From a virus: a stretch of DNA of 16,081 nucleotides. The position numbers and the translations under genes are program-made. The notes beneath the pieces were generated by a model. It saw only the letters and a list, made by a program, of their open reading frames with translations, was not told where the DNA came from and searched no databases. Shown in pieces: positions 4,228-13,176 of this stretch. The stretch is taken from UHGV virus genome UHGV-1809260; one strand, 5' to 3'. Position 1 is the first letter of the stretch. Each line of letters begins with the position of its first letter.

Positions 4228-4389
4228 TGGTTTCTCCACAAATTTTTATCCACGAGCGGGACTGCACTCCCTTTTCGTTGATGCAGGATGAACTTACTGC
4301 GATTTTTAATAGTTATCAAGGATACACTGTTCATAAATACAGTATCTTTAACGAGGTAATACCCAAATTTAGGGTGTTGCTCAATTCCG

Positions 4390-7528: not shown

Positions 7529-7749
7529 GCCACACCTCCCAGACGCTTAAACATTTTTCCGGAGCAAAAGGCTATAAGCGGCATACTGACGCGGTAATTA
7601 CGGCCCAGCGGTTCACAAATCACCTTCTGACATTCACGGTCAACCAGGCTAACACGTAGAACATGCCCTGCAGGCGTGGTGTACCACTGACCCGGACGAG
7701 GACAACGGAAAGTCTGATTGGTAAAACGTTTGAAAATATTCCGGATCAT
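7525..7749 (-). CDS. Hypothetical small protein (74 aa, four Cys)
   Basis: ATG at 7749 preceded by GGGGG with a 5-nt spacer; GTGA/ATGA overlaps with both neighbours. No family recognised. Confidence 0.55.
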   Translation of the reverse strand: MIRNIFKRFTNQTFRCPRPGQWYTTPAGHVLRVSLVDRECQKVICEPLGRNYRVSMPLIAFCSGKMFKRLGGVA

Positions 7750-8897
7750 TTGCGCCCCCTTGCCTCTGAAGGGTTCAGCGACAAATTTATGAGGCAGGCC
7801 AGCGCCGAAGCATCATTAATATAGTCATATAAGCTAACAGCCAGCGGAGATTCGGCTTTTGCCAACATAGGATAAAGCTGCTGCAGCCAGACCTGATGAA
7901 TTGATGAAATGTAGGAACAGAGAACGCTGGCGTTATGTGCAACGTCGCTCGGTACAGCAGGCTTTGAAAGCTGTTTCTCCATCTGGTTAAAGGCATTGAT
8001 GTATGCCTCTTTGAACTTGGCAGCACGTTTACCCGTGAAACCCATAGCAAGAAACGCAAAACCGTCGCGGGTGATTTGGTAACAAGGGAGTTTGCGGCCT
8101 GATGCGTCGGTGTATTCACTTAACACAAAAATGTGTTCAGTAAATTCAGCGGAACATTCGAGGTTTCTAATTCTATCTAAAACCCGCTCATGCCGTTTAG
8201 TAAAGTAATTAGCTACTGCAAGAGATGTGGTGACAACGCGACCATTGATAATCGTGATTTCAGGGTGAGATTGGGTTGGGAGAGTAGTCATGGTGACAGC
8301 CCCTATGTTGAATTCAATGAACTCACCACCAAGGCTTTCCACGACCATATAGGTGGTGAGACGTACAGGGGTGGAAATACCGGTCAACATAGAACCCGGC
8401 CCAACCGAAGTTGGCCCTGCACGCCCCACCATAATTTGGGCGTAACGATGCTCATGACACGAAAAAACCGCATGAGCGCGGTTGTGCTCTATATTGAATT
8501 TCGGGTTTCCACGCCCGGCACCCGCTTTATAAGGTGCCGGAACAGTGTAACGTCCCGGAATTGCAGAATCAATATGCTGGTGTTCCTTCACACTCAACAA
8601 AATCACGCCTGAATTTCCACAAAGGACTAAAGCACTCATGCGGGTAGTCTTTGCGAAGATAGATAACGCGCTGTGTTTCTGGCTCCCAACGAATAACATG
8701 GACATAAAGCCCTCTTCCGTCACGAAACCAGCGGTTAAGTTCCTGCACAACTCGCCCCCCACAGTCAGGTAAAGTTCTCTGTGGTTACTTACAGCCAGGT
8801 GATTTGGTAATCTGCATTCATGCCGTAACAACAGGTGTTCAGCGACGCTGACCACCAGCTGTTGCGACAAACGGTTATTTGCCGTTAAACTGTTCAT
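7746..8897 (-). CDS. Rha-family phage regulatory protein with an unusual ~200-aa N-terminal extension
   Basis: Residues ~203-305 (MTTLPTQSHPEITIINGRVVTTSLAVANYFTKRHERVLDRIRNLECSAEF...) match the Phage_pRha pattern. The frame stays open upstream to the ATG at 8897, which overlaps the upstream stop (ATGA) and has a GGAGA site. An internal ATG at 8291 also has an AGGGG site. Confidence 0.65.
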   Translation of the reverse strand: MNSLTANNRLSQQLVVSVAEHLLLRHECRLPNHLAVSNHRELYLTVGGELCRNLTAGFVTEEGFMSMLFVGSQKHSALSIFAKTTRMSALVLCGNSGVILLSVKEHQHIDSAIPGRYTVPAPYKAGAGRGNPKFNIEHNRAHAVFSCHEHRYAQIMVGRAGPTSVGPGSMLTGISTPVRLTTYMVVESLGGEFIEFNIGAVTMTTLPTQSHPEITIINGRVVTTSLAVANYFTKRHERVLDRIRNLECSAEFTEHIFVLSEYTDASGRKLPCYQITRDGFAFLAMGFTGKRAAKFKEAYINAFNQMEKQLSKPAVPSDVAHNASVLCSYISSIHQVWLQQLYPMLAKAESPLAVSLYDYINDASALACLINLSLNPSEARGRK

Positions 8898-9478: not shown

Positions 9479-9530
9479 GGTTAATTCCTCGTTTCTGTGG
9501 TTACGTTTACGCAGTTGAACCGCTAACTTT

Positions 9531-9770
9531 TTAATAGCACTCAGGTAATCCATCATTTGGATTGGGGTAAATATCAGGACGCAGTTCATGAGGGGTCACG
9601 GACCAGTTTCCCAACTCACAAAGTTGTAAAACCCGTTCTGACGGGACTTGATTGTTAATTACCCAATTGGCGACGGATTGAGTGGACTTAAAACCAAAGC
9701 GACGGGCTACTTCAGATAAAGATTTTCCCGCAGCCTTTACTGCTTTCTCTGTGTAGTTTTGAGATGACAT
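9531..9770 (-). CDS. Cro-like (YdaS-like) HTH repressor
   Basis: 79 aa; AGGAG Shine-Dalgarno upstream of the ATG at 9770. HTH segment KSLSEVARRFGFKSTQSVANWV and a C-terminal HELRPDIYP motif. Divergent from the cI-like gene across an operator-containing intergenic region. Confidence 0.8.
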   Translation of the reverse strand: MSSQNYTEKAVKAAGKSLSEVARRFGFKSTQSVANWVINNQVPSERVLQLCELGNWSVTPHELRPDIYPNPNDGLPECY

Positions 9771-9840
9771 ACCTTTCTCCTCTGAAATTCAGAGGGATAA
9801 TGCTACTTAAAATAGCAAATTGCAACTACTTAAAATAGAA
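9771..9840. promoter_or_regulatory. Divergent PR/PRM-like promoter-operator region
   Basis: Two copies of CTACTTAAAATAG (9803-9815, 9826-9838) within 17-bp near-palindromes (TGCTACTTAAAATAGCA at 9801-9817). Separate palindrome CCTCTGAAATTCAGAGG at 9779-9795 overlapping the cro ribosome-binding site. Candidate PR on the minus strand: -35 TTGCAA (9820-9825), 17-bp spacer, -10 CATTAT (plus-strand coordinates 9797-9802). Confidence 0.5.
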
Positions 9841-10581
9841 ATGACTAGCGCGTGCGATGTGAGTAATCTTCTACCTATGGTAGAAGAACAGAAGTATCCA
9901 GATTTCGCCAAGAGACTAAACGAATTGATGACAATCAAAGGAATCTCTGTCACTCAACTCAAAAGTCTTGTGGGCGTTACATATGAAATGGCTCGTCGAT
10001 ACACAATCGGCGCAGCGAAGCCACGTGTCTCTGTCATGAGTAAACTTGCGTTGGCTCTTGGAGTATCAGCTTCATATCTAGAATATGGTGTTGGAGATAG
10101 AGAGGAATGTAAGGAAATGGCAAGCATCCCCAATCCAACAAAGCCCGATGTATACAGGATAGAAGTTTTGGATCTTAGCGTTAGCGCAGGACCTGGGACC
10201 TATATGCTTTCAGACTATGTTGATGTGCTCTACGCCATTGAGTTCACAACTGAACATGCCCGTTCTCTTTTCGGAAACCGTTCTCAGAATGATATAAAAG
10301 TTATGACGGTAAATGGAGATAGTATGTCCCCAACTCTTGTTTCCGGGGATCGATTGTTTGTCGACATTTCCGTTCGCCACTTCCAGACTGATGGAGTTTA
10401 CTCTTTCGTTTACGGTAAGACTTTCCATGTTAAACGTCTACAAATGCAAGGCAACAAACTAGCTGTTCTTTCGGATAACCCCGCCTATGAGAAATGGTAC
10501 ATTGATGAGAAGTCGCAAGATCAGCTTTATGTTATGGGTAAGGCACTGATTCATGAGTCGATTAAATATAATCGACTTTAA
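9841..10581 (+). CDS. cI-like prophage repressor (N-terminal HTH plus C-terminal S24 LexA-type autopeptidase)
   Basis: HTH segment ISVTQLKSLVGVTYEMARRYTIG; Ala-Gly cleavage site (SVSAGPG); catalytic Ser in VNGDSMSPT and Lys in FHVKRL. The track start at 9820 is TTG; I prefer the ATG at 9841, with 9877 as an alternative. Confidence 0.85.
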   Translation: MTSACDVSNLLPMVEEQKYPDFAKRLNELMTIKGISVTQLKSLVGVTYEMARRYTIGAAKPRVSVMSKLALALGVSASYLEYGVGDREECKEMASIPNPTKPDVYRIEVLDLSVSAGPGTYMLSDYVDVLYAIEFTTEHARSLFGNRSQNDIKVMTVNGDSMSPTLVSGDRLFVDISVRHFQTDGVYSFVYGKTFHVKRLQMQGNKLAVLSDNPAYEKWYIDEKSQDQLYVMGKALIHESIKYNRL

Positions 10582-10815
10582 TTAGGCATCTAGCAATCGT
10601 TAAAGCAAACGAGCACAGATGATAAAAGATAAGGATAGAAAATCTTTATACAAATTTTATTTGGCACATTGGTCCATAAAAATGGATTAACACTGAGCTG
10701 TTACCCTAAGTAAGAAAAGATAAAGACCATATGTTATCTTTGGGTGCGTTACTAACACAAAAAAAACCAAAATAAAACATAAATAATAGACAATTCTATA
10801 CAACAGGATACGATA

Positions 10816-11901
10816 ATGATTAATGAACGTACTGAAGCGACAGATGGGGTAGCAGATATGATTTCCACCAATACAAAATATTTAGTATGGAACAACAAAG
10901 GTGGTGTAGGAAAAACTTTTCTTACATATAATCTTGCCGTTGAGTTTGCTATATCTCATCCGGATCAAGATGTTGTGGTTATTGACTCATGCCCTCAATC
11001 AAACGTTTCAGAAATTATTCTTGGTGGCAATGGTACCGGGGAAGAAAATCTAAATAAATTGCGAGACAGAAATGTTACAATCGCAGGTTATATCAAGGAG
11101 CGTTTTAGCAAATCTCCTTTGTCTCGTTTAGGAAATGAATCTTCTTACTTTGTACGAGCCCATGATGTTAATGCAAAAATGCCAGAGAACTTATATATTC
11201 TTCCTGGTGATGTCGATCTTGATATCTGTTCACGCTTAATATCTCACATTGGCTCATCCCCAGTAAAAGAAGCATGGAAGAAAAGCCGATCTTTGCTGGT
11301 AGATCTAATAGCATCTTTTGAAGCCGATAAAAACATTTCTGACAGAGCAAAAACATTTTTTATTGATTGTAATCCAAGTTTTGCCAGCTACACAGAATTG
11401 GGAGTAGTCGCGGCAAATAGAATAATTATCCCTTGCACTGCCGATGCTGCATCAATTCGCGGAATAAAAAACCTTGTTAAACTTATTTATGGAGTGTCTA
11501 TTGACAAGTCAGAACAAGATGAAATGTTCTTAGATTTCAACAAAGAAGCAAAGCAAAACCTTATCGAACTACCTGAACTACACCTTTTCGTACAAAACCG
11601 CTCAAGAACTAATGAAAGTGATGCAGCAAAAGCATTCAAATCACATGCAGAAGAGATCAAAAGAATCACGGATGACCTGTTAAATACACATCCTCATCTG
11701 TTCACAAATGTGGCTACTTTCGAGAGAGTTCAAAATGTCAAAGATGGTAATACTCTTGCAGCAATAATAAACCATGAGGGATGCCCTTTAAGTAGGCTGC
11801 AGCATAAGAGTTACACTATCTATGGTATGGCGACCCAAGCTAATAGAGCACAAATTGAAGCACTAGAATCTGATGTTTCAACAGTAGTCAAGTGTCTGTA
11901 A
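10816..11901 (+). CDS. Orphan ParA/MinD/Soj-superfamily P-loop ATPase (361 aa) in an AT-rich island
   Basis: Deviant Walker A WNNKGGVGKT, Walker A'-like VVVIDSCPQSN and Walker B-like TFFIDCNPSF. About 130 extra C-terminal residues with no recognisable family. AGGA site upstream of the ATG. No ParB-like gene adjacent. Confidence 0.8.
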   Translation: MINERTEATDGVADMISTNTKYLVWNNKGGVGKTFLTYNLAVEFAISHPDQDVVVIDSCPQSNVSEIILGGNGTGEENLNKLRDRNVTIAGYIKERFSKSPLSRLGNESSYFVRAHDVNAKMPENLYILPGDVDLDICSRLISHIGSSPVKEAWKKSRSLLVDLIASFEADKNISDRAKTFFIDCNPSFASYTELGVVAANRIIIPCTADAASIRGIKNLVKLIYGVSIDKSEQDEMFLDFNKEAKQNLIELPELHLFVQNRSRTNESDAAKAFKSHAEEIKRITDDLLNTHPHLFTNVATFERVQNVKDGNTLAAIINHEGCPLSRLQHKSYTIYGMATQANRAQIEALESDVSTVVKCL

Positions 11902-11935
11902 TACAATAACCATGATTTAGAACGAACATAATTCT

Positions 11936-11962
11936 CGCCCGACCAACAGGTCGGGTTTTATA
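11936..11962 (+). terminator. Rho-independent terminator after the ParA-like gene
   Basis: Hairpin cccgacc-aaca-ggtcggg (11938-11955) followed by tttta. Confidence 0.6.
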
Positions 11963-12189
11963 CTCGTAGCCTGCTTAATAACACTGTTCCTGACCCGTTG
12001 TATCCATAGTTCCCACTATTTTCCCCAAAATTATTACTATCTAATTAACCTAATAATTAAACCAAAACAAAAGACACTCGATATTTTCTATACGTAACTA
12101 CACCACATCCCCCCATCTGTGAAAAACCTTTTAATTCATAACGTTATATAGAAAACTAAAAATTAAATACACACTTCTACTTTTTGTTG

Positions 12190-12218
12190 TTGATTTTTGC
12201 TACTTTTAGTAGCATCAT
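12190..12218 (+). promoter_or_regulatory. OL/PL-like operator-promoter
   Basis: Perfect 17-bp palindrome TGCTACTTTTAGTAGCA (12198-12214), closely related to the OR sites. Flanking TTGATT (12190-12195) and CATCAT (12213-12218) mirror the proposed PR -35/-10 with a near-identical 17-bp spacer. Confidence 0.4.
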
Positions 12219-12239
12219 TATCTGAACAAACAACAGACT

Positions 12240-12630
12240 GTTGTTAACGAAAGGTTGGTTGTAACACGGCGTATGGCACATGCGTCGTTAGCGGTCTGGG
12301 GACGTTAAAGGGGACAATCCACTCCTTGCTCGGGCAAACAAACCAGGTAGCCGGAATGTGCAAGTCAATGATGATGCTGATAAGACGCCTAACCAGCGTG
12401 GCGATTCGGTTTGACGCTTGGGAAGAGACCAGGGTGCAACGATGAGGGCATTTATGGAGCCGCGACAAAGTGTGGTGCCGTAACTGGCTAAGTGCTCTCA
12501 GCGTTGTGGTAATCCGCGAAATGGCGCGGCGGTAAGTATGGCGGGGTTACTCTTTCCCCGTTGAGGACACCGGATTGTCAGGTTGACCATACGCCTGAGT
12601 GACAACCCCACCACAACAGCCACTGCTTTG
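12240..12630 (+). other. Long GC-rich untranslated leader (possible structured RNA)
   Basis: No plus-strand ORF longer than 25 codons between OL/PL and the internal terminator; composition contrasts sharply with the AT-rich island upstream. The listed ORFs crossing it are minus-strand or frame read-through. Confidence 0.35.
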
Positions 12631-12678
12631 GCGGTACCAGTTTGTACACTTGCTTCCGGCTGGTACCGCTCTTTTTAC
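12631..12678 (+). terminator. Strong intrinsic terminator / attenuator inside the PL leader
   Basis: Perfect 10-bp stem gcggtaccag ... ctggtaccgc (12631-12640 / 12660-12669) with a 19-nt loop, followed by tctttttac. Confidence 0.55.
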
Positions 12679-12813
12679 AAAACAGAGAAGAGCATCACCG
12701 GACGACGGGCTCATAACCCAATCCATCCGGGCGGCTGCCACCGCAGGTGTTCTTCTCTGTTTTGTGGAGAAACCAACCGACCTTTCAGGGTCGATATGAT
12801 GAGGAGCAGCAAA

Positions 12814-13176
12814 ATGGCTAGCGAACGCAGTACTGATGTGCAGGCATTTATCGGGGAGCTGGACGGCGGCGTATTTGAAACCAAAATCGGCGCAGTTCTC
12901 AGTGAAGTCGCTTCCGGTGTGATGAACACGAAAACCAAAGGTAAGGTCTCACTCAACCTGGAAATCGAACCATTTGATGAGAACCGTGTGAAAATCAAAC
13001 ACAAACTCTCATATGTTCGCCCGACTAACCGCGGCAAAATTTCCGAAGAAGACACCACCGAAACGCCGATGTATGTCAATCGCGGTGGTCGCCTGACTAT
13101 TCTGCAGGAAGACCAGGGACAATTACTGACTCTTGCCGGTGAACCTGACGGAAAACTACGCGCAGCAGGTCATTAA
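12814..13176 (+). CDS. Hypothetical early protein (120 aa), YfdP-like
   Basis: ATG at 12814 preceded by AGGAG with a 7-nt spacer (MASERSTDVQAFIGELDGG...). The longer listed ORF from 12583 is a read-through extension across the terminator. Size and position resemble CPS-53-type yfdP (recollection). Confidence 0.65.
   Translation: MASERSTDVQAFIGELDGGVFETKIGAVLSEVASGVMNTKTKGKVSLNLEIEPFDENRVKIKHKLSYVRPTNRGKISEEDTTETPMYVNRGGRLTILQEDQGQLLTLAGEPDGKLRAAGH

Follow-up and report, generated by a model that had tools for sequence, protein, structure and literature searches.

Positions 12172 to 12218 of the window (the entire 16,081-nt stretch of viral DNA that was analyzed, UHGV-1809260) very probably form the left operator and promoter (OL/PL) of a lambdoid prophage of E. 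coli whose early-left genes are of the SfV/CPS-53 type. We put the probability at roughly 85% that this is the correct reading, in which the block would be repressed by cI and the stretch between cI and OL2 would be an exchangeable cargo slot. The case is a computational one: it draws on the sites and on their mirror symmetry and conservation, as well as on the boundaries of the cassettes and the terminators. The OL/PL block follows the lambda/HK022 paradigm and is ordinary, unsurprising phage anatomy. With it, however ordinary, a complete immunity module (cro, OR1 to OR3, cI, cargo, terminator, and OL2-OL1/PL) is defined for a prophage type found in about 200 of 5,426 complete E. coli genomes, and exact targets are provided for binding and reporter assays. 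The features are collected in Table 1. RefSeq annotates the same DNA with a YmfL-family regulator, a Cro-like regulator, an XRE/S24 repressor, a "ParA family protein," and yfdP, yfdQ, and yfdR of the CPS-53/SfV type.

TABLE 1 Features of the window and, in the last three lines, ParA-superfamily genes in the repressor-OL slot of other loci (own coordinates)
Feature	Position	Strand	Description
AsxR and STnc100 matches	170-222; 226-435; 713-918	+; -; -	Rfam
cro-like HTH gene	9531-9770	-	Pfam YdaS/HTH_3, PHROG 35, RefSeq
PR	9797-9825	-	-10 CATTAT (9797-9802), -35 TTGCAA (9820-9825), 17-bp spacer; would drive the cro-like gene
OR1	9801-9817	.	TGCTACTTAAAATAGCA; in PR spacer
OR2	9824-9840	.	Overlaps PR -35 by 2 bp; abuts proposed PRM -35
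Proposed PRM	9841-9869	+	ATGACT (9841-9846), 17-bp spacer, TAATCT (9864-9869)
OR3	9869-9885	.	TTCTACCTATGGTAGAA; perfect 7-bp arms; 19.3 bits; centered on cI ATG (9877)
cI repressor	9877-10581	+	HTH and S24 peptidase; Ala104-Gly105 cleavage site, Ser149, Lys186
ParA/MinD-superfamily ATPase, orphan	10816-11901	+	361 aa, deviant Walker A KGGVGKT; AAA_31, CbiA, PHROG 164; in repressor-OL slot
Intrinsic terminator after cargo	11937-11964	+	11937-11956 plus T run; positional counterpart of lambda tIMM
OL2	12175-12191	.	TTCTACTTTTTGTTGTT; weaker predicted operator; left half-site good, right half degenerate
PL -35	12190-12195	+	TTGATT; counterpart of PR -35 TTGCAA
OL1	12198-12214	.	TGCTACTTTTAGTAGCA; TGCTAC-TTTTA-GTAGCA; inside PL spacer; strongest predicted operator
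PL -10	12213-12218	+	CATCAT; 17 bp from -35; predicted start near 12225
PL leader, untranslated	12225-12813	+	About 590 nt without annotated gene; followed by yfdP (12814-13176)
Structured RNA module	12254-12453	+	About 200 nt; first part of PL leader
Terminator-like hairpin	12631-12676 (approx.)	+	GGCGGTACCAG...CTGGTACCGC, then TCTTTTT; between PL and yfdP
Long hairpin, about 25 bp, perfect	12679-12765	+	Between PL and yfdP
Orphan ParA-superfamily gene, L165	2498-3574		In repressor-OL slot
Orphan ParA-superfamily gene, L166	2510-3562		In repressor-OL slot
Orphan ParA-superfamily gene, L002	3858-4934		In repressor-OL slot

Mirror-image sites on the two sides of cI

The original prediction had described OL1 as a perfect 17-bp palindrome that matched the OR 17-mers at 14 of 17 positions. 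Its position was confirmed, but its symmetry is less complete than claimed: OL1 is a 7+3+7 inverted repeat whose 7-bp arms (TGCTACT/AGTAGCA) are perfectly complementary, and it is not a perfect 17-bp palindrome because a T stands at both position 8 and position 10, which leaves the TTT center asymmetric. The agreement at 14 of 17 positions was true of OR1 on the same strand (15/17 in reverse orientation) but not of the other OR sites, as OR2 matched OL1 at only 11 to 12 positions and OR3 at 12. Both half-sites of OL1 fit the consensus TGCTAC. OL1 is the only site with two such half-sites and is therefore predicted to be the tightest operator.

The window was searched for copies of these sites. 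When as many as 3 mismatches were allowed, OR1 had five matches, on three sites, all of them in OR or at OL1, compared with 0.04 expected from shuffled sequence. A symmetrized weight matrix derived from the three OR sites only gave OL1 a score of 20.1 bits, the best non-training match in the 16 kb; this exceeds the maxima of all 200 shuffles, which averaged 11.4 bits and reached 17.5 bits at the highest. The sole other operator-like 17-mer in the window, TGCGATTTTTAATAGTT at 4298-4314, scored 12 bits. It was rejected as an operator, its score being at the level of the shuffle maxima, and is probably a chance match.

The flanks of OL1 had been said to parallel the PR arrangement, and here the likeness proved to be stronger than claimed. 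A repeat search of the window identified a 47-nt inverted repeat between 9797-9843 and 12172-12218 in which 77% of the positions are complementary. PR reads TTGCAA-tttgctattttaagtag-CATTAT and PL reads TTGATT-tttgctacttttagtag-CATCAT. Going outward from cI, both arms begin with the weaker operator (OR2 or OL2), the last 2 bp of which are shared with a -35 hexamer; next come a 17-bp spacer that coincides with the strong operator (OR1 or OL1) and a -10 hexamer that overlaps the latter by 2 bp. OL2 was absent from the original prediction. The starts of OL2 and OL1 are 23 bp apart, as are those of OR1 and OR2. OL2 alone scored 11.0 bits, which is at chance level against the shuffle-maximum mean; its status rests on spacing and conservation. 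Its half-site TCTAC is invariant in relatives, and one of these, L003, has a fuller palindrome, TTCTACTTTTTGTAGTT. A search for a third OL site upstream of OL2, where the flanks are not conserved, gave nothing above background.

Short T/A-rich palindromes are common in DNA of low GC content, which is 0.34 to 0.35 locally, and the resemblance to OR could be imagined to be a chance similarity in AT-rich DNA that has no function. This explanation is effectively refuted by the excess of OR1 matches over the shuffle expectation, by an OL1 score above every shuffle, by the 47-nt span of the similarity, and by the persistence of the block as a conserved island between unrelated flanks in five lineages (see below).

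The predicted PL is directed away from cI and into the early-left genes yfdP, yfdQ, and yfdR. Each of its hexamers matches the sigma-70 consensus at 4 of 6 positions, and PL was not called by a generic promoter scan because the total of 8/12 is below the threshold of 9/12. PR is alike in geometry and in the quality of its hexamers, and the scan found no better promoter-like site on the + strand of 11960-12813. The block has an operator sequence shared with OR, two adjacent sites about two helical turns apart, which would allow cooperative binding, a predicted promoter that is directed outward, and a location at the edge of the immunity module.

On the other side of cI, OR3 is a site that the original prediction did not contain. 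It reads TTCTACCT-ATG-GTAGAA around the start of cI and, together with OR2, brackets a putative PRM: OR2 abuts the proposed -35, and OR3 covers the proposed start. This start would coincide with the cI ATG or lie beside it, and the cI mRNA would then be leaderless, as is likewise the case for lambda PRM. The RefSeq start of cI is the equivalent of the ATG at 9877 and is not preceded by a Shine-Dalgarno sequence. In the distant relative L040, both PRM hexamers and the 17-bp length of the spacer are kept and the spacer sequence differs. The annotated cI start in L040 is an in-frame upstream ATG, at 9841 in the window; an apparent conservation of amino acids after this ATG coincides with the promoter hexamers and OR3. 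The phage repressors nearest to cI are those of HK639 (58% identity) and HK022/HK75 (43%), and a comparison of cI by sequence with solved structures gave no match.

An exchangeable slot between cI and OL

Next, the distribution and variation of the module were examined in E. coli. Positions 9500 to 12300 of the window match 71 complete genomes at 99.6% identity or more, the cro-cI module (at least 80% covered) is present in 206, and some part of an 11905-12260 query, which includes OL, matches in 203. Carriers of this prophage type include O157 and O145 strains. Four lineages were distinguished whose repressor proteins are 96.6 to 100% identical, and 35 viral contigs could be sorted into these four classes as well. 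In the interval from cI to OL, the window type has a ParA gene (type 1), L002 (strain PK8261) has a ParA gene whose product is only 22.8% identical to that of the window, L003 (ACN002) has two small ORFs, and L004 (GPEC1240) has two other ORFs. The cI-to-OL2 interval thus holds four different cargos in close lineages, and it is empty in the distant L040.

Homology among the four classes ends at the cI stop codon, resumes at 12173-12176, spans OL2, the -35 hexamer, and OL1, and disappears once more past the -10, so that a block of about 40 bp is conserved in all four lineages while both flanks are unrelated. When L040 was included with the four lineages, 26 of 38 positions were invariant in 12176-12213, compared with 4 of 66 positions before it; OL1 is conserved in all five. 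L040, with a cI protein 44% identical, lacks cargo: a terminator comes after cI, and OL2/-35/OL1 lies about 95 bp beyond the stop codon (TTCTACGTTTTGTTGTT-(TTGCAA)-ATCTACTTAAAGTAGCT), in the same arrangement as in the window. The -35 hexamer TTGATT is invariant in the four close lineages. The -10 hexamer occurs as CATCAT, CAACAT, CAATAT, or CAGAAT; A2 and T6, the two positions that matter most, are retained and the others drift. Close relatives all have nearly the same operators, and the evidence that pairs repressor with operator is one of conservation and not of covariation.

Single-base variation was also seen in L001 (STEC17-183), a prophage that is otherwise 99.9% identical to the window. 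Its OL1 has TTCTAC for TGCTAC (equivalent of window position 12199), and its PR has a -10 of CATCAT and a -35 of TCGCAA (equivalents of window positions 9800 and 9826). The DNA beyond 12776 is replaced in L001 by rdgC.

From 12245-12255 on, about 30 bp past the -10, the DNA is common to phages with other immunities, including cdtI, mEp460, and Stx2c phages. In mEp460, which is of a different immunity type, a repressor gene and a terminator are followed by operators of its own, TTGCATATCTCGCAA and TTGCATAATGCGCAA, which match the OR of mEp460 and lie at an equivalent distance before the shared leader DNA. The homology with foreign-immunity phages and the separate operators of mEp460 therefore show that an exchangeable immunity module has its left edge exactly at the OL/PL block.

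These data also bear on whether the block could be a true cI/Cro site that is not the operator of a promoter, for instance a relic or a site that mainly anchors looping between OL and OR, in which case another promoter would drive the early-left genes. The weak hexamers that escaped the promoter scan would be accommodated by such an explanation, as would the 590-nt leader with a terminator-like hairpin between the site and the first gene. We consider it improbable, however, given the invariant -35, the retention of A2 and T6 of the -10 in all lineages while other bases vary, the like geometry and hexamer quality at PR, the identical -10 of the annotated HK022/HK75 pL (CATCAT), the absence from the + strand between 11960 and 12813 of a better candidate, and the joining of other phages' modules immediately past the -10. 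An operator that overlaps a functional PL remains the preferred reading.

The cargo itself behaves like a moron. It occupies the DNA from the cI stop codon to OL, shares its strand with cI, differs in content among phages of the same immunity, and is atypical in base composition (GC of 0.31 to 0.38 versus 0.42 to 0.45 for cI). The original prediction likened the ParA-like gene, lying between cI and OL, to rexAB in lambda, and the comparison was upheld: the gene is on the cI strand and has a terminator behind it, and the order in lambda is cI-rexA-rexB-OL. Downstream of the cargo, an intrinsic terminator is present in the window, L002, L004, L165, and L166, and in L040 one comes directly after cI; none was found after the cargo in L003. 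Between cI and the cargo, an intrinsic terminator was not detected in the window, L002, or L004. By its sequence features, the order cI-cargo-terminator is the cI-rexAB-tIMM pattern. A terminator-like hairpin precedes ParA in Klebsiella phage phi8.2 (ST11-VIM1phi8.2), and cotranscription with cI therefore need not be general.

The cI-to-N interval of lambdoid phages has been described as a mosaic hotspot of diversity that harbors rexAB and bstA (PMC8585504). In the Salmonella prophage BTP1, bstA is a single accessory gene directly downstream of the repressor gene that has its own terminator and presumably uses the repressor's promoter (PMC8585504). Its position and its terminator are like those of the ParA-like gene here, but BstA is not a ParA-type ATPase, and a defense phenotype has been shown for BstA whereas none is known for the ParA-like protein. 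PADLOC gave an insignificant match to the ParA-like gene (E = 0.007) and weak or partial matches to the alternative cargos. The slot is clean, sharply bounded, and naturally exchangeable.

The original prediction held that one repressor controls both operators, and all the sequence-level predictions of the OL/PL reading that could be tested agreed with it. The binding, repression, transcription start, cotranscription, and cooperativity that we infer would combine as follows. A single LexA-like, self-cleaving cI would recognize 17-bp sites with the half-site T(G/T)CTAC; it would bind to OL1 in the PL spacer and, probably cooperatively, to the weaker OL2 over the -35. RNA polymerase would be occluded at PL by OL1/OL2, as it would be at PR by OR1/OR2, and the Cro-like protein presumably acts on the same sites as cI. 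In the lysogen, the PRM transcript would run through cI into the ParA-like gene and stop at the terminator before OL, and the cargo would be insulated from PL by that same terminator. Upon induction, cI would cleave itself and PL would fire rightward (in window coordinates) through the long, structured leader into yfdP, yfdQ, and yfdR.

An orphan ParA-like gene as cargo

Partition loci often have repeats or palindromes beside their par genes. With a ParA-superfamily ATPase encoded directly upstream, OL2 and OL1 might instead be a partition centromere (parS or parC-like) or an operator for ParA autoregulation. This is most unlikely, and the centromere reading was rejected because relatives without ParA (L003, L004, and L040) keep the palindromes. 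The sites are, moreover, copies of those between cro and cI; the ParA-like protein scored 48.9 bits against NCBIfam ParA_partition, for which the cut-off is 180 bits; and the prophage is an integrated one, with an integrase and an excisionase at the end of the element in L001. A search for a ParB-like partner in 10582-12243 found no ORF of at least 40 aa except those that overlap ParA. A ParABS partition system was rejected on the same grounds, namely, the score below the cut-off, the lack of an ORF for ParB or another adaptor, and the retention of the palindromes without ParA. The sites are best assigned to OL, and the ATPase gene upstream of them to the cargo.

The closest relative of the ParA-like protein among solved structures is 3pg5, an uncharacterized protein of 361 aa. 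Across 74 loci of the ParA family from many phyla, a conserved neighbor was not found; ResIII was upstream in 6 loci and an integrase in 3. The position behind a phage repressor gene is seen repeatedly. A homologue with 83.5% identity follows the repressor gene in Klebsiella phage ST11-VIM1phi8.2, and further downstream of ParA lies that phage's own copy of its OR-type operator (CAATACGTATTGCTAT, 15/16). In Pseudomonas phage phi297, a homologue with 38% identity follows the repressor gene, and an OR-type operator copy of its own (ATAAGCACGCTTATAT, 15/16) is located further downstream, at annotated promoters. The operators are unrelated among the E. coli, Klebsiella, and Pseudomonas phages that have ParA in this slot. 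In E. coli, the slot behind one and the same repressor can hold either of two ParA alleles, which share only 23% identity.

This recurring orphan gene is a reasonable candidate for an accessory function expressed in the lysogen. We tentatively suggest, as one possibility among others, that the ATPase has a single-gene, non-partition role in the lysogen, such as phage exclusion or interference with plasmids or phage-plasmids that use ParA-type segregation, and that unrelated immunity regions of E. coli, Klebsiella, and Pseudomonas phages have each acquired it between cI and OL. Literature searches found no paper with the protein accessions or with the core sequence of the leader RNA described below.

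The PL leader and comparison with characterized phages

The predicted transcript from PL begins with a long leader that folds far better than shuffled sequence (z = -5.3). Its first part contains a structured RNA module, which is conserved in lambdoid, phiV10-like (just before tRNA-Arg), P1/P7-like (between tRNA-Ile and ban), and epsilon15-like phages. The module was found in 1,832 of 5,426 complete E. coli genomes, with 554 copies on plasmids, and in a sample of 30 matches, none had an annotated feature under it. A search of Rfam with 12150-12850, at the gathering threshold and at E values up to 5, returned nothing credible. The consensus structure has 40 pairs, 98.3% of them paired, compared with 27 to 43% for slid controls, and compensatory changes are present in two helices; G-U pairs assign the RNA to the + strand. 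The covariance model of the module had no match in the leaders of L002 to L004 and L040 or in HK639, HK75, phi8.2, and phi297. The module is therefore an optional mosaic element and not an obligatory part of PL operons.

The part of the leader with the two hairpins at 12631-12765 is common to all sister lineages and is also found in SfIV, ST64B, and others. The hairpins suggest that read-through is regulated in this phage, where PL is not followed by an N gene.

The nearest characterized layout is that of HK022 rather than lambda. The record of HK75, which carries HK022-derived annotation, was used for pL, oL1 to oL3, and oR1 to oR3. In HK022/HK75, pL is TTTACA-17-CATCAT with oL1 in the spacer, so that the -10 hexamer and the position of O1 are the same as at PL here; oL2 is about 23 bp upstream, as is O2 here; and oR3 of HK75 (TGAACTTATGGTTCA) is centered on the cI ATG, as is OR3 here. 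The two differ in their half-sites (TGAAC in HK022 versus T(G/T)CTAC here), in the number of OL sites (three in HK022, two detectable here), and in the OR2-OR3 spacing (45 bp here, 33 bp in HK022). HK022 also has no cargo between cI and OL, unlike the window, whereas in HK639 the DNA from cI to the annotated pL contains three ORFs and a terminator, like the cargo slot described here.

Both HK022 and HK639 have put antiterminator RNA after pL. No put-like sequence was seen here beyond a 9-mer: when putL of HK75 and the putL-like RNA of HK639 were compared with four leaders by blastn-short, only 8- to 10-mers were found, including the shared 9-mer CATGCGTCG. The Rfam search likewise gave no match to a put family.

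Lambda has the order cro, OR1-3, cI, rexA, rexB, OL3-1, and N, compared with cro, OR, cI, cargo, terminator, OL/PL, and early-left genes here. As in the window, cI and PL of lambda are on the same strand, and 17-bp operators are common to OL and OR. The operator sequences and the cargo proteins of the two are unrelated, and lambda has three OL sites and an N gene and nutL after PL, whereas neither N nor nutL follows PL here. The distance between OL1 and OR1 is 2,397 bp here and 2,407 bp in lambda. This near equality is coincidental, since cI and OL are much closer together in relatives that carry other cargos.

Additional features were noted elsewhere in the window. A tRNA scan of the window found none. 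Rfam matches to C4 antisense RNA and isrK, at 8349-8436 and 8461-8537 on the - strand, lie within a long ORF on the same strand (7746-8897) that has Ash and Rha domains. This region resembles the P1-type immI antirepressor control module and would belong to the PR operon; toward its 5' end, the ORF may represent an RNA leader and not be coding. Near the start of the window, a match to AsxR (an anti-stx2 sRNA) scored exactly at the gathering score, and two full-length copies of STnc100 are present about 490 bp apart.
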